Made by a program: the position numbers and the translations under genes. Shown here one piece after another: positions 6,597-39,644 of a DNA stretch of 39,644 bases (position 1 is its first letter; every line of letters begins with the position of its first letter). A model generated the notes under the pieces. The model saw only the letters and a list, made by a program, of their open reading frames with translations, was not told where the DNA came from and ran no database searches. Source of the stretch: a virus (Duplodnaviria; Heunggongvirae; Uroviricota; Caudoviricetes); the IMG/VR virus record IMGVR_UViG_2718218133_000003; one strand, 5' to 3'.

Positions 6597-6851
6597 ATGA
6601 ACCAGAAAACACTTGAAGATGTAATCAAAACTGTTCGCGTTGCTGTTGTGGCCGACGTTTGTGGTGTCAGCCAAAGAGCAATCTATAAATGGATGGATAA
6701 CGGAAAATTGCCTCGCACAGAATATACCGGCGAAACAAATTACGCTGAAAAAATCGCTCTTGCATCAAACGGATTATTTTCTGCCGATGCAATTTTAACT
6801 ATTGGCAGGAATAAAACTACTACGAAAAAGCTGATGGGAGTTGATTCATGA
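6597..6851 (+). CDS. Cro-like HTH DNA-binding protein (YdaS-like)
   Basis: ATG at 6597 with GAGGGTGA upstream; HTH motif VADVCGVSQRAIYKWMDNGKLP; divergent from repressor. Confidence 0.7.
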   Translation: MNQKTLEDVIKTVRVAVVADVCGVSQRAIYKWMDNGKLPRTEYTGETNYAEKIALASNGLFSADAILTIGRNKTTTKKLMGVDS

Positions 6852-27960: not shown

Positions 27961-30900
27961 ATGGGTAAAGGCAGCAGTAAGGGGCATACCCCGCGCGAAG
28001 CGAAGGACAACCTGAAGTCCACGCAGCTGCTGAGTGTGATCGATGCCATCAGCGAAGGGCCGGTTGAAGGTCCGGTGGATAGATTAAAAAGCGTGCTGCT
28101 GAACAGTACGCCGGTGCTGGACAGTGAGGGGAATACCAATATATCCGGCGTCACGGTGGTGTTCCGTGCCGGTGAGCAGGAGCAGACACCGCCGGAGGGG
28201 TTTGAATCCTCCGGCTCCGAGACGGTGCTCGGTACAGAAGTGAAATATGACACTCCGATCACCCGGACCATCACGTCGGCAAACATTGACCGTCTGCGTT
28301 TTACTTTCGGCGTGCAGGCACTGGTGGAAACCACCTCAAAGGGGGACAGGAATCCATCGGAAGTCCGCCTGCTGGTTCAGATACAACGTAACGGTGGCTG
28401 GGTGACGGAAAAAGACATCACCATTAAGGGTAAAACCACTTCACAGTATCTGGCCTCGGTGGTGGTGGATAACCTGCCGCCGCGCCCGTTTAATATCCGG
28501 ATGCGCAGGATGACGCCGGACAGCACCACAGACCAGCTGCAGAACAAAACGCTCTGGTCGTCATACACCGAAATTATCGATGTGAAACAGTGCTACCCGA
28601 ACACGGCACTGGTCGGCGTGCAGGTGGATTCGGAGCAGTTCGGCAGCCAGCAGGTGAGCCGTAATTATCATCTTCGCGGGCGCATTCTGCAGGTGCCGTC
28701 GAACTATAACCCGCAGACGCGGCAATACAGCGGTATCTGGGACGGAACGTTTAAACCGGCATACAGCAACAACATGGCCTGGTGTCTGTGGGATATGCTG
28801 ACCCATCCGCGCTACGGCATGGGGAAACGTCTTGGTGCGGCGGATGTGGATAAATGGGCGCTGTATGTCATCGGCCAGAATTGCGACCAGTCGGTGCCGG
28901 ATGGCTTTGGTGGCACGGAGCCGCGCATCACCTGTAATGCCTGGCTGACCACACAGCGTAAGGCGTGGGATGTTCTCAGTGATTTCTGCTCGGCGATGCG
29001 CTGTATGCCGGTATGGAACGGGCAGACGCTGACGTTCGTGCAGGACCGACCGTCGGATAAGGTGTGGACCTATAACCGCAGTAATGTGGTGATGCCGGAT
29101 GATGGCGCGCCGTTCCGCTACAGCTTCAGCGCCCTGAAAGACCGCCATAATGCCGTTGAGGTGAACTGGATTGACCCGGATAACGGCTGGGAGACGGCAA
29201 CAGAGCTTGTGGAGGACACGCAGGCCATTGCCCGTTACGGTCGTAACGTCACGAAGATGGATGCTTTTGGCTGTACCAGCCGGGGGCAGGCACACCGCGC
29301 CGGGCTGTGGCTGATTAAAACAGAACTGCTGGAAACGCAGACCGTGGACTTCAGCGTGGGTGCCGAAGGGCTTCGCCATGTGCCGGGTGATGTTATTGAA
29401 ATCTGCGATGATGACTATGCGGGGATCAGCATCGGCGGGCGCGTGCTGGCTGTGAACAGCCAGACCCGGACGCTGACGCTCGACCGTGAAATCACGCTGC
29501 CATCCTCCGGTACCACGCTGATAAGCCTTGTTGACGGTCAGGGTAATCCGGTCAGCGTGGAGGTCCAGTCCGTCACCGACGGCGTGAAGGTGAAAGTGAG
29601 CCGTGTTCCTGACGGCGTTGCTGAATACAGCGTGTGGGGGCTGAAGCTGCCGACGCTGCGCCAGCGCCTGTTCCGCTGCGTGAGTATCCGTGAGAACGAC
29701 GACGGCACGTATGCCATCACCGCCGTGCAGCATGTACCGGAAAAAGAGGCCATCGTGGATAACGGGGCGCACTTTGACGGCGACCAGAGCGGCACGGTGA
29801 ATGGTGTCACGCCGCCAGCGGTGCAGCACCTGACCGCCGAAGTCACCGCAGACAGCGGGGAATATCAGGTGCTGGCGCGCTGGGACACGCCGAAGGTGGT
29901 GAAGGGCGTGAGTTTCCTGCTTCGCCTGACCGTGGCAGCGGATGACGGCAGTGAGCTGCTGGTCAGCACGGCCCGGACGGCGGAAACCACATACCGCTTC
30001 AGGCAACTGGCGCTGGGGAACTACAGGCTGACAGTCCGGGCGGTAAATGCGTGGGGGCAGCAGGGCGATCCGGCGTCGGTATCGTTCCGGATTGCCGCAC
30101 CGGCAGCACCGTCGAGGATTAAGCTGACGCCGGGCTATTTTCAGATAACCGCCACGCCGCATCTTGCGGTTTATGATCCGACGGTACAGTTTGAGTTCTG
30201 GTTCTCGGAAAAGCGGATTGCGGATATCAGGCAGGTTGAAACCACAGCCCGCTATCTTGGCACGGCGCTGTACTGGATAGCTGCCAGTATCAATATCAAG
30301 CCGGGCCATGATTATTATTTTTACATCCGCAGTGTGAACACCGTTGGCAAATCGGCATTCGTGGAGGCTGTTGGCCAGCCGAGTGATGATGCATCCGGCT
30401 ATCTGGATTTTTTCAAAGGAGAGATAGGGAAAACCCATCTGGCTCAGGAGTTGTGGACGCAGATTGATAACGGTCAGCTTGCGCCTGACCTGGCGGAAAT
30501 CAGAACGTCCATCACGGATGTCAGTAATGAAATCACGCAGACCGTCAATAAGAAACTGGAAGACCAGAGTGCAGCGATCCAGCAGATACAGAAGGTTCAG
30601 GTTGATACAAATAATAACCTGAACAGCATGTGGGCTGTGAAGCTGCAGCAGATGCAGGACGGACGCCTTTATATCGCGGGTATTGGTGCCGGTATTGAAA
30701 ACACCCCTGACGGCATGCAGAGTCAGGTGCTGCTGGCGGCAGACAGGATTGCGATGATTAATCCTGCGAATGGCAACACAAAGCCGATGTTTGTTGGTCA
30801 GGGCGATCAGATATTTATGAATGAAGTGTTCCTGAAATATCTGACGGCTCCCACCATTACCAGCGGCGGTAATCCTCCGGCATTTTCCCTGACACCGGAC

Positions 30901-31440
30901 GGGCGGCTGACGGCGAAAAATGCCGATATCAGCGGTAACGTGAATGCGAACTCCGGGACGCTCAACAACGTCACGATTAACGAGAACTGCCGGGTTCTGG
31001 GAAAACTGTCCGCGAACCAGATTGAAGGCGATCTCGTTAAAACAGTGGGCAAAGCTTTCCCCCGGGACTCCCGTGCACCGGAACGGTGGCCATCAGGGAC
31101 CATTACCGTCAGGATTTATGACGATCAGCCGTTTGACCGGCAGATTGTTATTCCGGCGGTGGCATTCAGCGGCGCTAAACATGAGAGAGAGCATACTGAT
31201 ATTTACTCCTCATGCCGTCTGATAGTGCGGAAAAACGGTGCTGAAATTTATAACCGTACCGCGCTGGATAATACGCTGATTTACAGTGGCGTTATTGATA
31301 TGCCTGCCGGTCACGGTCACATGACGCTGGAGTTTTCGGTGTCAGCATGGCTGGTAAATGACTGGTATCCCACAGCAAGTATCAGCGATTTGCTGGTTGT
31401 GGTGATGAAGAAAGCCACCGCAGGCATCAGTATCAGCTGA
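27961..31440 (+). CDS. J: Host specificity protein J (central tail fibre)
   Basis: 1159-aa ORF following I; lambda J-like throughout. Confidence 0.9.
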
Positions 31441-31507: not shown

Positions 31508-32107
31508 ATGCGTAAATTATGTGCTGTTATTCTGTCCGCAGTAGTCTGGCTGGTTGCCGCTGGTACGCCAGCGAGCGCAGCAGAGCATCAGTCCACACTA
31601 AGCGCCGGGTATCTTCAGACCCATACTGATATGCCAGGCAGTGATGACCTGAAGGGCATTAACGTGAAATACCGTTATGAATTTACGGACACGCTGGGGC
31701 TGGTGACGTCATTCAGTTATGCCAATGCCAAAGATGAGCAAAAAACGCATTACAGCGATACCCGCTGGCATGAAGATTCCGTGCGTAACCGCTGGTTCAG
31801 CATGATGGCGGGGCCATCTGTACGCGTGAATGAATGGTTCAGTGCTTATGCGATGGCGGGTATGGCTTACAGCCGTGTGTCGACCTTCTCCGGGGATTAT
31901 CTCCGCGTAACTGACAACAAGGGGAAAACGCATGATGTGCTGACCGGAAGTGATGACGGTCGCCACAGCAACACGTCTCTGGCGTGGGGGGCTGGCGTGC
32001 AGTTTAACCCGACCGAATCCGTGGCCATTGACCTTGCTTATGAAGGTTCCGGCAGTGGTGACTGGCGCACTGACGGTTTCATCGTGGGTGTCGGTTATAA
32101 ATTCTGA
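31508..32107 (+). CDS. lom: Lom/Ail family outer membrane beta-barrel protein
   Basis: Signal peptide; C-terminus DLAYEGSGSGDWRTDGFIVGVGYKF identical in pattern to lambda Lom. Confidence 0.9.
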   Translation: MRKLCAVILSAVVWLVAAGTPASAAEHQSTLSAGYLQTHTDMPGSDDLKGINVKYRYEFTDTLGLVTSFSYANAKDEQKTHYSDTRWHEDSVRNRWFSMMAGPSVRVNEWFSAYAMAGMAYSRVSTFSGDYLRVTDNKGKTHDVLTGSDDGRHSNTSLAWGAGVQFNPTESVAIDLAYEGSGSGDWRTDGFIVGVGYKF

Positions 32108-32133
32108 TTAGCCAGGTAACACAGTGTTATGAC

Positions 32134-32160
32134 AGCCCGCCGGTTCAGGCGGGCTTTTTT
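32134..32160 (+). terminator. Intrinsic terminator after lom
   Basis: Hairpin AGCCCGCC-ggttca-GGCGGGCT followed by TTTTTT. Confidence 0.65.
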
Positions 32161-32165
32161 GTGGA

Positions 32166-34544
32166 GTGGATATGGCAGCAGTAAAAATCTCAGGTGTGCT
32201 GAAAGATGGTGCGGGAAAACCAATACAGAACTGCACTATTCAACTGAGGGCAAAGCGTAACAGCACCACGGTACTGGTGAACACGGTGGCTTCTGAAAAT
32301 CCGGATGAAGCCGGACGTTACAGCATGGATGTTGAGTATGGCCAGTACAGCGTCACCCTGCTGGTTGAAGGTTTTCCGCCTTCACATGCCGGGACCATTA
32401 CCGTCTATGAAGGCTCCAGACCAGGTACGCTGAATGATTTTCTCGGTGCCATGACGGAAGATGATGTCATGCCGGAGGCATTGCGTCGTTTTGAGGCAAT
32501 GGTGGAAGAAGTGGCACGCAACGCCGAAGCCGCCTCTCAGAGCGCAGCGGCGGCAAAGAAATCCGAAACTGCAGCGGCATCATCAAAGAACGCGGCGAAA
32601 ACCTCAGAAACGAATGCAGCTAATAGTGCACAGGCGGCAGCGGCCTCACAGACTGCATCGGCAAACTCCGCGACAGCAGCCAAAAAATCAGAAACCAACG
32701 CGAAAAATAGCGAGACAGCCGCAAAGACGAGCGAAACCAACGCAAAGTCCAGCCAGACGGCAGCGAAAACCAGCGAAACGAATGCCAAAGCCAGTGAAAC
32801 TGCGGCAAAAAACAGCCAGGTTGCAGCAGCCCAAAGCGAGAGCGCGGCAGCCGGTTCTGCGACTTCAGCAGCCGGATCAGCAACTGCTGCGGCTAACAGC
32901 CAGAAAGCTGCGAAGACGAGTGAAACTAACGCAAAGTCCAGCCAGACGGCAGCGAAGACCAGCGAAACGAATGCCAAAGCCAGCGAAACTGCGGCGAAAA
33001 ACAGCCAGGATGCAGCAGCCGAAAGCGAGAGTGTTGCAGCTGGTTCTGCAAGCGCGGCGGCTGCTTCTGCCACTGCATCAGCTAACAGTCAAAAAGCAGC
33101 AAAAACCAGTGAAACCAACGCAAAGACAAGCGAGACTGCGGCAGCTAACTCGGCGAAAGCATCCGCTGCAAGCCAGACAGCGGCTAAAGCAAGTGAAGAT
33201 GCAGCCAGGGAGTACGCAAGCCAGGCAGCTGAGCCGTATAAACAAGTTTTGCAGCCACTGCCTGATGTGTGGATACCGTTTAATGACTCGATGGATATGA
33301 TTGCAGGATTTGGCCCGGGATATAAAAAAATAACAGTGCGCGATGATGTGGTCACTATACCATCCGACAAAATTGTCCCGTTTTCCCGCGCGAGTTCCGC
33401 GACCTATATCAATAAGTCCGGCGCTCTTACCATTGCAGAAATTAATGAGCCACGTTTTGAAAAAGAAGGGCTGTTAATTGAAGGGCAGAGAACTAACTAT
33501 CTAAAAAATTCTAATACACCGGAATTGTGGTACTACCACAGTTTACTGGCGAAAGAGTATGGGGTTGATAATTACGGTTTTAATTATGCAACCGTCACCG
33601 TGACAGACAGTCTTGTAGGCACAACCAGTAGTTATCAGATTCATAGTGTAACTGGAGAGAACAGGTTTTCTCTGTCCATCGGTGAAACCTGCACTTTTTC
33701 TGCCCGCTTTCGTGGAGTTAATTCACGTTGTCGCGTCCATATATCTCTTGTTATTGGCGAAAATGTTAAAACATCCGTTGATGTATGTCTGGAGCCAGAT
33801 ACAGGTGAGGTTAAGGCGTACGGTAATAAGGCGCTGGTGACATTCAGAACGGAAAAACAGGGGGACTGGTGTTACTTTGAAACAACATATACCGCCGCAG
33901 AGAATATTGACGAAGTGGTATGCGGTTTTTTTATAACCAATCCTGAAGATGGTGGTTTTTCTTCTGATTCGTCATTAACAATGACTACGCCGCAAATTGA
34001 AAAAGGGCCATGCGCTTCATCGTTTATTATTTCCGGAAACACACCAACCACGCGCGCCAGTGATATGGTTATTTTTTCAACCAGAAATAACATAAGTTCT
34101 GTCCCTTTAAGCTGTCTTGTTGAAATACATAAAAATTGGGACTCTACGCCAAATCAGGCCCCACGAATTTTAACCACTATTGGCGTGGCGACTAATGATG
34201 AACAACTGGTATTGGCTTTCAGGACGCCTACAAGTCCGGATGTAGAACCTTTACCTTATGTTCAGTTTGGAGTGAGATCTGCATATCTTAGTCCATCTGT
34301 GAAGGCCGGGCGCAAAATGATTGCTGGTTTTGTCTGTAATAGCTCGACTGAATTTCGTTGCTGTTGTAATGGTTACCTGTCACCTGTTCAGACTTCGTCA
34401 TGGAAGAATACCGGAGCTGCACATGAAATACGTATTGGGGGAACTTCTGCTGGAGGAGAACGTCACTTGTTTGGTCACGTTCGTAACCTGAGAATATGGC
34501 ATAAAGAATTAACTGATGCGCAAATGGGGGAGTCAGTAGAATGA
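32166..34544 (+). CDS. stf: Side tail fibre protein (Stf-like) with internal Ala/Ser/Thr-rich tandem repeats
   Basis: 792-aa ORF after lom; N-terminus lambda Stf-like; repeat block AAKTSETNAKSSQTAAKTSETNAKASETAAKNSQ. Confidence 0.8.
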   Translation: MDMAAVKISGVLKDGAGKPIQNCTIQLRAKRNSTTVLVNTVASENPDEAGRYSMDVEYGQYSVTLLVEGFPPSHAGTITVYEGSRPGTLNDFLGAMTEDDVMPEALRRFEAMVEEVARNAEAASQSAAAAKKSETAAASSKNAAKTSETNAANSAQAAAASQTASANSATAAKKSETNAKNSETAAKTSETNAKSSQTAAKTSETNAKASETAAKNSQVAAAQSESAAAGSATSAAGSATAAANSQKAAKTSETNAKSSQTAAKTSETNAKASETAAKNSQDAAAESESVAAGSASAAAASATASANSQKAAKTSETNAKTSETAAANSAKASAASQTAAKASEDAAREYASQAAEPYKQVLQPLPDVWIPFNDSMDMIAGFGPGYKKITVRDDVVTIPSDKIVPFSRASSATYINKSGALTIAEINEPRFEKEGLLIEGQRTNYLKNSNTPELWYYHSLLAKEYGVDNYGFNYATVTVTDSLVGTTSSYQIHSVTGENRFSLSIGETCTFSARFRGVNSRCRVHISLVIGENVKTSVDVCLEPDTGEVKAYGNKALVTFRTEKQGDWCYFETTYTAAENIDEVVCGFFITNPEDGGFSSDSSLTMTTPQIEKGPCASSFIISGNTPTTRASDMVIFSTRNNISSVPLSCLVEIHKNWDSTPNQAPRILTTIGVATNDEQLVLAFRTPTSPDVEPLPYVQFGVRSAYLSPSVKAGRKMIAGFVCNSSTEFRCCCNGYLSPVQTSSWKNTGAAHEIRIGGTSAGGERHLFGHVRNLRIWHKELTDAQMGESVE
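32700..33130 (+). repeat. Tandem duplication of about 190 bp inside stf
   Basis: 32722..32912 and 32913..33100 are near-identical, with a partial third copy. Confidence 0.7.
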
Positions 34545-34819
34545 AAGATTTTACGCTGAAGTTTCGAGATCGGGAAGGCTATAAAGCATTCTTGAATGAA
34601 ATTAATTGGGAAGATAATGAAGTATTGCAAGATCAACTCCTGATTGATGAAATTGGATTCGCTTTCGATGAAGTCGGCAGAAATGCCGACGACGAACCAA
34701 TTTATCAACGACGCGACGGTTATTTTGTAAATATTAGAATCTTAGATGAAAAGCTGGACGCATCACCATTTACCGGAAATGTAGTGATTCTTGATGCTCC
34801 TCTTCGTGAATGGGCTTGA
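34541..34819 (+). CDS. Hypothetical protein between the two fibre genes
   Basis: 92-aa ORF; ATGA overlap with stf stop. Confidence 0.45.
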   Translation: MKDFTLKFRDREGYKAFLNEINWEDNEVLQDQLLIDEIGFAFDEVGRNADDEPIYQRRDGYFVNIRILDEKLDASPFTGNVVILDAPLREWA

Positions 34820-34829
34820 GGGGTAATAT

Positions 34830-35870
34830 ATGGCGAACTTAACAGTAATTCCTGATGACATCAAAACGCTAAAATCCGACGTTAGCAAATTAAAAAAAGA
34901 TCAAGGAAGCTACGCAACAAAATCATATGTAGACAATAAAACAACATGGAATGGTTATTGCAATGTAATCTATGATCAAAAGACATTGCCGACCACTGGA
35001 ACTATATTTAGCGGTAAGATTCACTTGTCAAATAAGACAGGAGAAACCGAAAACGCTTATGGTGAGATGTACACCAGAAAAAATATTGACGGTACAAAAG
35101 ATACAATGACAAGGATTGTCACACACAATGGAACAAAAGGTATCTTTTGGGATTTTAGCGATCTTTACGGTGGAACATTAATTTTTCCAGGCAGTGATGG
35201 TTACCTTAAGATGGGGAACTGTCTCATGTCGTATGGTGTGCGGGGAAGTAACGCGCTTATTAAGTTTGACTGCACAGACACATTACAAATCAAATATGCT
35301 AATCATGGGTCAACCATGACAATAAACACACAAGGAACCGCTCACGCTGGCGTTACTGCTAGCTTGTGGGGCAACTCTAGCCGTCCGGTTGTATATGAAG
35401 TTGGTGCTGATGGTGGCGCGTATATGTTCTATGCGCAGAAACATACCGATAACACCTATATGTTAAGCGTTAATGGTGCATGTCATGCCACCGCATTTAA
35501 CCAGCATTCCGACCGGGATCTGAAAGACAACATTCAGGTGATCGATAATGCAACCGACCGCATCCGTAAAATGAACGGCTATACATACACTCTTAAAGAA
35601 AATGGCATACCTTACGCTGGTGTTATCGCGCAAGAAGCACTAGAAGCAATCCCAGAAGTTGTAGGCTCTGCAATGAAATATCAGGATGGTGGAAGCGGGT
35701 CGAAAGGTGAAGAAGGTGAACGTTATTACACAGTAGATTATTCTGGTGTTACTGGCTTGCTTGTTCAGGTAGCCAGAGAGTCAGACGACAGAATAACAGC
35801 ACTGGAAGAAGAAAACGCAGAATTAAGACAAAGATTATCTGCAATTGAGGTGGCGCTTGCGTCTAAATAA
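34830..35870 (+). CDS. Tail fibre/tailspike-like protein with C-terminal intramolecular chaperone (peptidase S74-like) domain
   Basis: C-terminus DRDLKDNIQVIDNATDRIRKMNGYTYTLKENGIPYAGVIAQEALEAIPEVV ... coiled coil ALEEENAELRQRL, typical of self-cleaving fibre chaperone domains. Confidence 0.7.
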   Translation: MANLTVIPDDIKTLKSDVSKLKKDQGSYATKSYVDNKTTWNGYCNVIYDQKTLPTTGTIFSGKIHLSNKTGETENAYGEMYTRKNIDGTKDTMTRIVTHNGTKGIFWDFSDLYGGTLIFPGSDGYLKMGNCLMSYGVRGSNALIKFDCTDTLQIKYANHGSTMTINTQGTAHAGVTASLWGNSSRPVVYEVGADGGAYMFYAQKHTDNTYMLSVNGACHATAFNQHSDRDLKDNIQVIDNATDRIRKMNGYTYTLKENGIPYAGVIAQEALEAIPEVVGSAMKYQDGGSGSKGEEGERYYTVDYSGVTGLLVQVARESDDRITALEEENAELRQRLSAIEVALASK

Positions 35871-35876
35871 TATTAA

Positions 35877-35899
35877 GGGGCCGAGCGCCCCGTTTTATT
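35877..35899 (+). terminator. Intrinsic terminator after the fibre genes
   Basis: Hairpin GGGGC-cgag-CGCCCC followed by GTTTTATT. Confidence 0.6.
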
Positions 35900-35912
35900 G
35901 GGTGGGATGAAA

Positions 35913-36206
35913 ATGGATATAACACCTTTCCTTCATGCACTTTGTGCTGTGGCTGCGCAGGTACTGGTTGGCCTTTTTACCGGAAACTGGGTTTACGGTG
36001 CGATAGCCGGTTGTACGTTCTTCATTGCGCGTGAACACACCCAGGCAGAATATCGCTGGATTGAAATGTTCGGGCATGGCAAGCGAATGAATATGCCGTG
36101 GTGGGGCGGTTTTGATCTACGCGCGTGGGATGTAGCAAGCCTGATGGATTTTGCTGTGCCGGTGGTGGCGTGTCTGCTGGTCTGGCTGTTGGTTAATCGT
36201 GTGTGA
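35913..36206 (+). CDS. Hypothetical small membrane protein
   Basis: Hydrophobic segments at both ends; GGGTGGG upstream; unknown function. Confidence 0.4.
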   Translation: MDITPFLHALCAVAAQVLVGLFTGNWVYGAIAGCTFFIAREHTQAEYRWIEMFGHGKRMNMPWWGGFDLRAWDVASLMDFAVPVVACLLVWLLVNRV

Positions 36207-36433
36207 AAAAAGGTGAGCTGTATATGCAACGGAGGAAGAAACCCCGTTGCTGGAAGCATGGAAAAAGTATCGGGTATTGCTGAACCGTGTTGATACGTCA
36301 ACTGCACAGGATATTGAATGGCCAGCACTGCCGTAGGGTAAAACATATAAATTCTATAATTAGATGTATCTTTCCATTTACGGCAAGGAAGGGGGCTTGG
36401 AAGACGTAAAGCATCTCACACCGAGATTATTTT

Positions 36434-37024
36434 TTATATGTCAGGTGTCTGAAGTTTTGCTTTGGCTCTTAAAATGGTTTGCCGCGAGGTTTTGAATTCC
36501 CGGGCAATGGCACTTATACTTACACCTGACTTAATTCGTTCGAATACCACCTGTTTCTGTTCTTCATTTAACACAGGTGGTCGACCAAAACGTTTCCCTG
36601 CGCCGCGGGCTCTTACTATCCCGGAATGAGTGCGTTCAAGTAAAAGGTCTCGTTCAAATTCAGCGACTGCTGAAATTACTTGCATCATCATTTTTCCTGT
36701 TGGACTGGTCAGGTCAATGCCACCCAATGCTAAGCAATGCACTCTGATACCTGTTTCGGTCAGTTGTTCCACTGTTTTCCTGATATCCATTGCATTACAA
36801 CCAAGGCGATCCAGTTTTGTCACAATCAATTGATCACCACATTTCAGGCGAGCAAGCAACCGGTTAAAACCAGGACGCTCACTGGTTGCTGCTGAGCCGC
36901 TAATGTGTTCTTCGATTATTTGCTGAGGTTTGATTTTAAAACCTGCACTTTCGATTTCCCGGCGTTGATTTTCGGTGGTCTGATCCAGCGTTGATATCCG
37001 ACAGTAAGCAAAAATTCGAGACAT
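36434..37024 (-). CDS. pinQ: Serine recombinase / DNA invertase (PinQ/PinR-like)
   Basis: 196 aa; N-terminal catalytic motif [10 protein letters not shown]; C-terminal HTH; position after the tail fibre genes as in Qin/Rac. Confidence 0.85.
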
Positions 37025-37340
37025 AGTGAGACTCTATACGAAATTGGTGTTCATATCATAATGCATCTCAGAAAATAATTATGATTATTTTTGTGCATAT
37101 TTGTATGTACACGTTCGAAAATAAACGAATGCGTATGCAACCCCGTAATTTTGGTGAGACCCAAAATCGATTTTGTGAAAAAAGGCTTTAACTCGGTTTG
37201 TTTTTCGAGTTCCGGGCGGACTCAAGGAAGAAGAATAGTGTTGCGTGTTATTTTAACCAGATTTCAAGTTGTTTGGTCGTGGAAAAGTGGAGCAAAATGT
37301 TGTTAAAGTGGAAAAATGATAAAAAAGTAAGTTTATTATA

Positions 37341-37574
37341 TTACATTTTACCATTTAAATTTTGGTTGTCTTTAAGAACTGATATCGCTGTTTGTAATAA
37401 TTCTTTGTTATCCAGCCATGATTTTTTCTTTATGTTTCCTTCAATGTAATCAAGCAATGTTCTGGTATTGATAGGTCTTCCCTGTTTTGCTACTTCCACT
37501 ACAGCATCCCCTAGGATAATTCTTACTTCAGGAAGCTGCGCAGGGAACCACTTTAGGGTGTCTTTTGATTTCAT
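37341..37574 (-). CDS. ydfK: YdfK/YnaE-like small protein (77 aa)
   Basis: 77-aa product from MKSKDTLKWF...; position next to pin at the prophage edge as in Qin/Rac. Confidence 0.5.
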   Translation of the reverse strand: MKSKDTLKWFPAQLPEVRIILGDAVVEVAKQGRPINTRTLLDYIEGNIKKKSWLDNKELLQTAISVLKDNQNLNGKM

Positions 37575-38360
37575 GAAGATATTCCTTAAAATATTATTGA
37601 TTTTCATTGCGATATTGTATGTCTGATTCAGGATATGTTGACTTATACATCGGTTTTGTCTGGGTTATTGGATATGCCAATCCCTAATTTTATTAGGGCA
37701 TGACTAAAAATGCTGAATATGATAAGGAGAGATGTGATTATCAGTATGCTGTTCATATAGCCTCGAATTAGTAATGTGTTATATATGATATAGTTGACAA
37801 TTTTTATCTTGGGTGTTCTTAAAGTTCGTAGATAAACATTGTCGTTTCAGGTATACAGGAATGCTAACAGGTGGCAGCAAAAATCAGGCGGTTTATGGCG
37901 CAAGCTGAAGCGGCAACTGTAAACTATCTTATGCAGAGACTCTACACGGATTGGGTTTAAAAGTATACATAGATAACAGTTTTTATCTGAAAAAGAAAAA
38001 TATCAAGGTGATATAGCCTATATGCCTTTGATGCGGAGGAATGAATGTGATGGGAGTGATGTATCTGAATAGTTGAAAAACCGCAGACACGCCTTATGCA
38101 AGAACGTGCTGCGGTTGGCTGGTAAATTTTTCGATAGTGTGAGTATTGAATGATTTCCAGCCGTTCTTGATTTTACGCATAAATCCATGAAAAAACTACT
38201 TATCTGTTGGGGAGTTTTTTTTGGGGCATATATGGGACAGAAATAGGCCCCAGATAGACACTGAGATCGAACTTAGGATGCTTTTTAAAAAATGCAACTA
38301 TCTGAAAAAACCTAGAAAACGCCAAGGAAACCACAGGATGGGAAAAAACACCTGTGAATT

Positions 38361-39644
38361 ATGGATTTCCAGTTATATTCGCTCGGCGCAGCGTTAGTGT
38401 TTCATGAAATATTTTTTCCTGAATCATCAACGGCAATGGCGTTAATTCTGGCAATGGGAACCTACGGTGCAGGTTATGTGGCGCGTATTGTCGGAGCATT
38501 TATTTTCGGCAAAATGGGCGACAGAATAGGGCGTAAAAAAGTACTCTTTATTACCATCACCATGATGGGGATCTGTACCACCTTAATTGGTGTGTTACCG
38601 ACCTATGCACAGATTGGTGTTTTTGCACCCATCTTGCTGGTGACGCTGCGTATTATTCAGGGATTGGGTGCAGGTGCGGAAATTTCCGGTGCCGGTACGA
38701 TGCTGGCGGAATATGCGCCAAAAGGTAAGCGCGGAATTATCTCCTCATTTGTTGCTATGGGGACTAACTGCGGAACCTTGAGCGCAACGGCAATCTGGGC
38801 CTTTATGTTCTTCATTCTCAGTAAAGAGGAACTGTTGGCGTGGGGATGGCGTATACCGTTCCTGGCGAGCGTTGTCGTGATGGTCTTTGCTATCTGGTTG
38901 CGTATGAATCTGAAAGAAAGCCCGGTCTTTGAGAAGGTTAACGACAGCAATCAACCGACAGCAAAACCTGCACCTGCTGGTAGCATGTTCCAGAGCAAAT
39001 CCTTCTGGCTGGCAACAGGGCTGCGTTTTGGTCAGGCTGGTAACTCAGGTTTAATTCAGACTTTCCTTGCAGGCTATTTAGTGCAGACGTTATTGTTTAA
39101 CAAAGCAATTCCAACAGATGCATTGATGATCAGTTCGATTCTCGGCTTTATGACCATTCCGTTCCTTGGTTGGTTATCCGATAAAATAGGTCGCCGGATC
39201 CCGTATATTATTATGAATACCTCTGCGATTGTGCTGGCGTGGCCAATGCTTTCTATCATCGTAGATAAAAGCTATGCCCCGAGCACCATTATGGTTGCAC
39301 TGATTGTGATTCATAACTGTGCGGTGCTGGGATTATTTGCTCTGGAAAACATTACCATGGCAGAAATGTTCGGCTGTAAAAACCGCTTTACCCGGATGGC
39401 TATTTCTAAAGAAATTGGTGGTCTTATCGCTTCCGGTTTTGGTCCTATCCTGGCGGGTATTTTCTGCACCATGACGGAATCCTGGTATCCGATCGCCATT
39501 ATGATCATGGCATATTCAGTGATTGGTTTAATCTCTGCGCTGAAAATGCCAGAAGTGAAAGACCGTGATTTAAGTGCACTGGAAGATGCCGCGGAAGATC
39601 AACCGCGTGTTGTAACAGCAGCGCAACCTTCAAGAAGTCTGTAA
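38361..39644 (+). pseudogene. ydfJ: MFS transporter (metabolite:H+ symporter family, ydfJ-like), missing about 40 N-terminal codons
   Basis: Homology to ShiA/ProP-type transporters begins at the very first codons (LGAALVFHEIFFPES...); an in-frame stop lies immediately upstream and no upstream frame encodes the missing segment. Confidence 0.75.

Follow-up and report, generated by a model that had tools for sequence, protein, structure and literature searches.

In the Din systems (Mu Gin/G, P1 Cin/C, e14 Pin/P, and Salmonella Hin), a small serine recombinase gene adjoins fibre genes, and the pair is accompanied by 26-bp crossover sites, opposed alternative fibre genes, and inversion isoforms. 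The same neighbourhood occurs in a 39,644-nt stretch of caudoviral DNA (IMG/VR record IMGVR_UViG_2718218133_000003; hereafter, the window), in which the recombinase gene pinQ lies beside genes for two tail fibres. For the window, by contrast, no crossover sites, opposed fibre genes or inversion isoforms were found.

A recent report describes a role for the Escherichia coli K-12 PinQ protein in phage defence (PMC12529663, 2025). In that study, PinQ is reported to act in trans, raising inversion of the e14 P segment and so lowering adsorption of phage T2. Overproduced PinQ raises inversion from ~30% to 88%, whereas deletion of pinQ lowers survival of T2 infection; these effects need stfP/stfE and e14. 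The P segment is locked in a pinE mutant, so PinE seems to be required.

Analysis of the window makes it very likely that its fibre genes and pinQ lie side by side for historical reasons and do not form a switch: pinQ is read as a relic of a Tn3-family resolvase, and the two-fibre cassette as the replacement of an stf-tfa pair. This reading builds on observed gene content, homologies and boundaries, and on the observed absence of sites and isoforms.

The name pinQ is misleading. Gin, Cin, Pin and Hin share roughly 60–70% identity among themselves. The window PinQ is 99% identical to K-12 PinQ and 38% identical to e14 PinE; it scores 105 bits against Gin and 83 bits against γδ resolvase. Its DNA-recognition region contains SRQT, which aligns with resolvases (ARST in γδ) and not with Din invertases (GVST). 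The context differs as well: the recombinase gene turns its 3′ end towards the fibre genes in the window (pinQ), but its 5′ end in e14 (pinE). By sequence and context, PinQ is not a Din-family invertase. A preliminary description of the window, made from its letters alone, had called the product a Pin-family invertase; it is indeed a serine recombinase, encoded on the opposite strand and convergent on the fibre genes, but it is Pin in name only. This matters beyond one locus: pinQ and pinR are widely read as Pin-type invertase genes, and automatic annotation spreads the label to the resolvases of plasmid transposons.

The nearest non-prophage relatives of PinQ (78–86% identity) are plasmid-borne. 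One (P0014, 84% identical) is encoded 160 bp from, and divergent to, a 994-residue Tn3-family transposase (DDE_Tnp_Tn3) in seven of eight contexts. The whole is a minimal plasmid transposon comprising only tnpA, res and tnpR, with a TnpR 84–85% identical to PinQ; the element spans 3.8 kb and has terminal inverted repeats of 53–57 nt that begin with GGGG. One plasmid copy (L098) is flanked by 5-bp TAATA direct repeats (at 2818–2822 and 6638–6642). A recent transposition would leave just such a target duplication, which makes the transposon that carries the plasmid relatives of pinQ an active one. The intergenic region of the element contains three dyads: one of 28 bp; one of 34 bp; and a third beside the start codon. 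Their half-sites resemble TGTCCGAAA, and the arrangement is that of a predicted res of textbook layout. The designation Tn5403-like rests on plasmid papers, in which 'pinR' (an automatic label) is listed beside Tn5403, a transposon with transposition genes only, and on the gene content of the element.

The window retains a recognizable fraction of this transposon. DNA identity with the plasmid element is 83% over a stretch that takes in pinQ with 56 bp before its start codon and 45 bp after its stop codon, and homology ends precisely at the tip of a terminal repeat (GGGG at about 36391–36395), 3′ of pinQ; the segment between this tip and pinQ aligns with the 53–57-nt repeats. Upstream, diverged versions of res subsite III (37034–37059) and subsite II (37065–37098, 34 bp) occupy the same positions, at the same distance from the start codon, as in the plasmid res. 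A promoter-like match (37111–37084) lies in this region. Site I, which would be the crossover site, has one good half (37111–37120); its possible partner (37150–37159) is poor, and lies 29 bp away instead of 8 bp. Thus, the window holds subsites II and III together with a split or degenerate site I, not a complete res. The plasmid transposon also has a transposase gene and a second terminal repeat. No second repeat was found anywhere in the window, and tblastn with the 994-residue TnpA detected no tnpA remnant there.

On the simplest history, an ancestral Rac-like phage would have received a Tn3-family (Tn5403-like) transposon immediately 3′ of tfa. All that lay past the midpoint of res would then have been lost, including tnpA and an intact site I. 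What survives would be the resolvase gene with a single terminal inverted repeat, and subsites II and III of res, with which the pinQ promoter overlaps.

The active site has changed as well. Plasmid homologues, PinE, Gin, and the γδ and Tn3 resolvases share the sequence DRLGR, whereas PinQ, PinR, and the protein of phage Tritos have DRLGC. Cys75 of PinQ occupies the position of Arg71 in Tn3 resolvase, a catalytic residue whose substitution (R71A or R71K) abolishes recombination and slows cleavage about 1000-fold. In codon 75 (36800–36802, minus strand), the difference from the plasmid homologue is a single CGT-to-TGT transition. Among the 120 homologues listed, 112 have Arg and five have Cys at this position, and the Cys forms with examined contexts are prophage forms. 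Alignment with the other active-site residues (Tn3 numbering Y6, R8, S10, D36, R68 and R71) indicates that PinQ keeps Y7, R9, S11 and R72; the D36 position is Glu, as in the plasmid homologues. The set characteristic of small serine recombinases therefore appears incomplete in PinQ, Cys75 replacing R71.

A second prophage lineage (P0009), 85% identical to PinQ, also has the Cys residue. The ratio of nonsynonymous to synonymous substitution (dN/dS) is 0.35 between the two Cys-bearing lineages and 0.15 between pinQ and the plasmid gene, so pinQ is still constrained, though less tightly. Sequence is also exchanged between the plasmid and prophage pools, as a mosaic pin gene in an E. coli prophage near prfC/dinI indicates (L103:7700–8700; GCA_910593615.1). 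Its flanks and 3′ end are PinQ-like, but most of its coding sequence and the right half of res subsite II resemble the plasmid tnpR, and the catalytic position is Arg. This suggests gene conversion between plasmid transposon and prophage copies.

Might pinQ simply be a functionless fossil that has not yet decayed? Loss of tnpA and site I, replacement of the catalytic Arg, and a dN/dS roughly twice as high within the prophage lineage as along the path leading to the plasmid gene all point in this direction. Nevertheless, the open reading frame is intact, both in the 80 viral-contig loci kept for analysis (99–100% identical) and in protein clusters of 2,148, 1,066 and 359 member sequences. Comparison of the PinQ, PinR and Tritos genes finds few synonymous and no nonsynonymous differences; the Cys residue is kept in the second lineage despite 15% divergence in protein, with a dN/dS well below 1; and phenotypes have been published (PMC12529663). 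A fossil is therefore a rather unlikely description.

Does PinQ invert any DNA in the window? Simple pattern searches (AAACCNNGGTTT and TTATCNNAAACC) returned chance-level counts, and position matrices were used in their place. A Din-site matrix was built from known hix and gix sites, together with pix sites read from K-12. In K-12 its top two matches are both e14 sites. The best match in the 39.6-kb window scores 9.3 bits, compared with 28.6–33 bits for real sites, and lies below the median maximum for shuffled sequence (11.0 bits). Res-type matrices, derived from the res of the closest PinQ homologue either alone or combined with the half-sites upstream of pinQ itself, identified no second site in the window; only the dyad retained upstream of pinQ was found. 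The longest inverted repeats between 30000 and 39644 are 16–28 nt long and mostly 71–83% complementary, and none in the fibre region resembles a gix, hix or pix crossover site; repeats of the gix/hix kind were the feature that the preliminary description had proposed to look for.

Gene arrangement and population data agree with these results. All matches to fibre genes and tfa in the window are on one strand. Opposed copies of stf, tfa, the 92-residue gene, the short-fibre gene or the membrane-protein gene are absent from the 80 viral-contig loci with PinQ or PinR, in which all are convergent with pin. Queries representing inverted isoforms were run against 5,426 genomes. With 33301–36340 reverse-complemented between its native flanks, no genome exceeded 51% coverage; with the pinQ segment (36391–37160) flipped, none exceeded 72%. 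Each value is the collinear expectation. The same type of query for the e14 P segment recovered 112 genomes at 80% coverage or more, with MG1655 assemblies at 100%, so the method detects real invertible segments in this collection. Likewise, inversions found by BLAST in the 2025 study were seen only in e14, with none in Qin or rac (PMC12529663). The suggestion that the recombinase might serve fibre inversion of the e14/Mu/P1 type thus finds no support in sites or in isoforms: every assembly has a single orientation, and no inverted isoform was found among the 5,426 genomes. We are confident that no DNA segment of the window is inverted by PinQ.

Several points weigh against this reading. First, a perfect 16-bp inverted repeat (31521–31536 and 35787–35802) links signal-peptide codons of lom with the 3′ part of the short-fibre gene, and only ~0.01 such pairs are expected in 9.6 kb. 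Second, the site matrices are built on few known sites, from which the true site of PinQ may differ. Third, finished assemblies are consensus sequences from which a low-frequency inversion could escape, even though the e14 inversion still shows in them. Fourth, pinQ is under constraint (dN/dS 0.35), so that "relic" describes its origin and not necessarily its present state. Finally, the 2025 study of a 99%-identical PinQ indicates that the protein may be an active invertase elsewhere in the genome.

The 16-bp repeat was considered as a crossover site and rejected. It has no dyad symmetry, and inversion would truncate both lom and the chaperone domain of the short fibre. Phages Tritos and PhiR11_1 have the cassette without lom, and so without the repeat. 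The corresponding isoform would have given 62% coverage in the inverted query, in which no genome exceeded 51%. The repeat is probably a product of chance.

A cis-acting switch, in which PinQ would invert part of the fibre region and so alter host range in the manner of Mu, P1 and e14, would account for a recombinase gene that abuts fibre genes as in the classical systems, and could make use of this one perfect repeat. It is nonetheless extremely improbable: no crossover-type site occurs in the window; neither the window nor any of the 80 related loci has fibre genes or tfa in opposed orientation; the search of 5,426 genomes, whose positive control worked, gave no inverted isoform; and the repeat is asymmetric, destructive if inverted, and missing where lom is missing.

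Three further proposals concern the present role of PinQ. According to the first, PinQ is a working invertase that acts at pix sites on an e14-type P segment elsewhere in the chromosome, changing a fibre-like protein that blocks T2 adsorption. Any such segment would lie outside the window. The published inversion frequencies, T2 survival, and dependence on stfP/stfE and e14 speak for this proposal, as does purifying selection on pinQ. Speaking against it are the Cys residue at a position where Ala or Lys abolishes recombination; a recognition region that is resolvase-like; pix half-sites that score only 5.8 and 2.3 bits (of a maximum of 15.4) on the res half-site matrix of the closest homologue; and the locked pinE mutant in the same paper. 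Together, ancestry and recognition region, poor pix fit, altered active site and locked mutant argue for caution about a direct mechanism, without disproving it. We regard direct action at the remote segment as a doubtful, though serious, candidate.

The second proposal is that PinQ remains a resolvase, acting on its own res to resolve dimers of the circular phage genome. Resolvase ancestry and retention of subsites II and III upstream of pinQ would suit such a task. Yet crossover site I is disrupted (29 bp rather than 8 bp separate its candidate halves, of which the left is poor), and the catalytic Arg71 is replaced. Moreover, packaging in lambdoid phages depends on concatemers, and it is not obvious why dimers should have to be resolved. 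This role is highly improbable.

A third proposal, offered tentatively, is that PinQ and PinR are a domesticated Tn3-family resolvase, kept under selection by Rac- and Qin-type phages for a role other than canonical strand exchange. The protein might regulate by binding sites, or might bias the action of a second invertase, PinE for example. In that case the published claim of e14 P-segment inversion by PinQ itself would have to be reconsidered. In any case, resolvase descent and an altered active site bear on how that phage-defence report is interpreted and tested.

The history of pinQ as a transposon relic is matched by an exchange in the adjoining fibre genes. Between the membrane-protein gene and the terminal repeat lies a tfa scar, missed in the preliminary description: the last 36 codons of tfa with the stop codon. 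Homology to K-12 tfaR and tfaQ starts at GCAACGGAGGAAGAAA and continues to the tfa stop codon, in an alignment of the junctions from the window, K-12 Rac and Qin, Tritos, E. coli B, and one pin-less prophage. The pin-less prophage (L007) has the same scar after its cassette, and its sequence diverges directly past it; the conserved tfa 3′ end is therefore the right-hand junction of cassette exchange. Presence of the remnant further implies that the cassette replaced a Stf-Tfa pair, rather than that the pair was never there. The preliminary description had the second fibre standing in place of a Tfa-type assembly gene; that no complete tfa follows stf in the window is correct, with the amendment that these last codons remain.

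In the proposed mechanism, an exchangeable fibre cassette would have replaced the usual pair (the C-terminal part of stf, and tfa) by recombination, leaving the scar. The cassette would comprise the distal part of Stf; the 92-residue gene; an optional 346-residue fibre gene with an S74 domain; and, behind a terminator-like hairpin, the membrane-protein gene. The 346-residue short fibre would fold with its own S74 chaperone and then cleave it off. The virion probably carries two receptor-binding proteins, and we infer that the short fibre docks by its unique N-terminal ~113 residues. More generally, lambdoid phages and virulent siphophages trade a receptor-binding cassette of three or four genes, for which the conserved 3′ end of tfa is a junction.

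Features of the right end of the window (positions in the 39,644-nt stretch; aa, amino acids; ORF, open reading frame; PGAP, Prokaryotic Genome Annotation Pipeline).
Feature	Positions	Strand	Basis
J	27961-31440		
lom	31508-32107		
stf, 790 aa by PGAP	32172-34544 (ORF opens 32166)	+	PF08400, phrog_1419
92-aa gene	34541-34819	+	phrog_1361
346-aa short tail fibre gene	34830-35870	+	PF13884, phrog_4563
Terminator-like GC hairpin (35877-35891) and T run	35877-35900	+	consensus scan, pattern match only
97-aa membrane-protein gene	35913-36206 (ORF opens 35898)	+	hydrophobic segments, phrog_1443
tfa scar, PGAP pseudogene	36226-36336	+	alignment with K-12 tfaR/tfaQ
Tn3-family (Tn5403-like) terminal inverted repeat	36389-36433	-	alignment with plasmid element
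pinQ, 196-aa small serine recombinase	36434-37024	-	PF00239 (resolvase) and PF02796 (HTH_7)
res remnant and pinQ promoter region	37034-37160	-	alignment with plasmid res, dyad scans
ydfK/ynaE-type small gene, where tnpA would be	37341-37607	-	annotation

The right end of the window is a lambdoid prophage at the K-12 Qin attachment site, inside ydfJ. Beyond ydfK come ynfT and then the prophage end, in ydfJ (38361–39644), a gene for a transporter of the major facilitator superfamily. As in K-12 Qin, the prophage truncates its 5′ end. The prophage is far more complete than Qin, with J, lom and stf intact. RefSeq annotation of an identical genome lists the same genes, one by one, and the gene series given in the preliminary description (stf, the 92-residue gene, the 346-residue fibre, the small membrane protein, and a recombinase on the opposite strand) stands at its original coordinates. 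The locus is thus what is usual at the right end of lambdoid prophages of the Rac/Qin type, ordinary and already known. As a common, annotated prophage end it matters little in itself; the fibre-switch question receives a clearly negative answer, and what is mildly new is limited to the transposon origin and active-site change of PinQ and PinR.

Stf has an N-terminal attachment domain of the lambda type (PF08400, residues 5–134, 222 bits; residues 5–97 match the solved tail-fibre chain 9e7m, E=1.7e-48), a repeat shaft rich in Ala, Ser and Thr, and a C-terminal part that includes a 'GTA head-spike fibre' domain (NF048003, residues 437–631). The phrog_1419 match spans the full protein. Within the shaft-coding DNA (32709–33136), a 189-bp unit is repeated 2.3 times (83% match), with nested periodicities of 21 and 42 bp; it codes for the Ala/Ser/Thr/Lys-rich repeats. 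This repeat is a likely hotspot for length variation and for the left-hand junction of the cassette.

The second, separate short fibre, which the preliminary description had placed 3′ of Stf with a self-cleaving chaperone domain, is borne out as a fibre with an S74 chaperone domain by a Peptidase_S74 match (PF13884) at residues 227–278 (52.2 bits, against a Pfam cut-off of 22). Similarity to a solved structure is confined to this chaperone part and is weak (6f45, E=9e-4): HSDRDLKDNI aligns with SSDRRIKKDI, so that S227-D-R-D-L-K232 stands opposite S-D-R-R-I-K and the S-x4-K dyad is present. Ser227 and Lys232 are taken to be the catalytic pair, as in endosialidase chaperone domains. Self-cleavage is predicted before Ser227, and from its sequence the protein reads as a genuine S74 fibre. 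Three parts can be distinguished: residues 1 to ~113, specific to the stand-alone form; ~114–226, the receptor-binding part; and 227–346, the S74 intramolecular chaperone. The phrog_4563 match spans all three, and proteins of the viable phages PhiR11_1, Tritos, 2G7b, HannyBb and JenP1 are 70–89% identical. Matches in mEp460 and Ayreon begin only at residue ~114, and there the sequence is fused to the end of Stf; tip and chaperone are therefore a shuffled unit. Presumably, the N-terminal ~113 residues serve in docking.

The 92-residue gene is always found 3′ of this type of Stf, with or without a second fibre, and occupies the same position in Tritos, PhiR11_1, JenP1, and the E. coli B and ST131 prophages. 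Its product has no match in Pfam, NCBIfam or PADLOC, only phrog_1361 (function unknown), and the AlphaFold2 model is unusable (mean predicted local distance difference test score of 46, from a shallow alignment of 19 sequences).

The 97-residue protein has two strongly hydrophobic 17-residue stretches (within residues ~3–27 and ~72–97) and is predicted to be a small integral membrane protein, moron-like in its position. It matches only phrog_1443 (function unknown); PADLOC returned no match for this protein, nor for PinQ, YdfK or the fibre proteins. The terminator-like hairpin separates its gene from that of the short fibre. This position, and absence of the gene from the virulent phage JenP1, fit an accessory gene expressed by the prophage, and a function in superinfection exclusion or receptor masking may be imagined. 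A query with the module matched 1,885 E. coli genomes, and in many of these the gene recurs at ~95% identity behind varied fibre genes. It always lies directly 3′ of a receptor-binding fibre gene, of varying type (L006, L008, L009); in L009 this gene encodes a 'pyocin knob' S74 protein, and a retron-like reverse transcriptase is encoded beside it.

The cassette is independent of pin: PhiR11_1 and prophages at two other chromosomal sites contain the genes for Stf, the 92-residue protein, the 346-residue fibre and the membrane protein without a recombinase gene. In the E. coli B and ST131 prophages, the 346-residue gene is absent and the membrane-protein gene starts 12 bp after the 92-residue gene. 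The 346-residue gene is thus an optional insert in a widespread cassette of stf, the 92-residue gene and the membrane-protein gene. In the virulent Nonagvirus JenP1, a Stf-like protein, the 92-residue protein and the short fibre occur together; the membrane protein is absent.

How does the window compare with known relatives? Complete E. coli genomes with 100% identity over the segment from 32100 to 37700 number 84, and nothing of substance sets the window apart from them; the 40 listed each have a single collinear match. The viable phage Tritos (OV696610) has the same gene order from J through pinR, with stf, the 92/93-residue gene, the 346-residue gene, the 97-residue gene, and a ydfK-like gene beyond; unlike the window, it is without lom. 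K-12 Rac and Qin share pin, ydfK/ynaE and ynaM/ynfT with the window, and the 97-bp spacer between the tfa and pin stop codons is identical. These prophages have the classical stf-tfa pair, however, where the window has the two-fibre cassette.

The fibres themselves recall the two-protein, branched lateral fibres of T5-like phages (DT57C LtfA/LtfB), in which a long proximal fibre likewise accompanies a separate short fibre ending in an S74 domain. DT57C LtfB has no detectable sequence match to the 346-residue protein; docking of the short fibre through its own N-terminus would fit these known fibres. Moreover, the receptor-binding tip of the T5 type also ends in an S74 chaperone, and the tip-plus-chaperone unit is shuffled between phages, as here.

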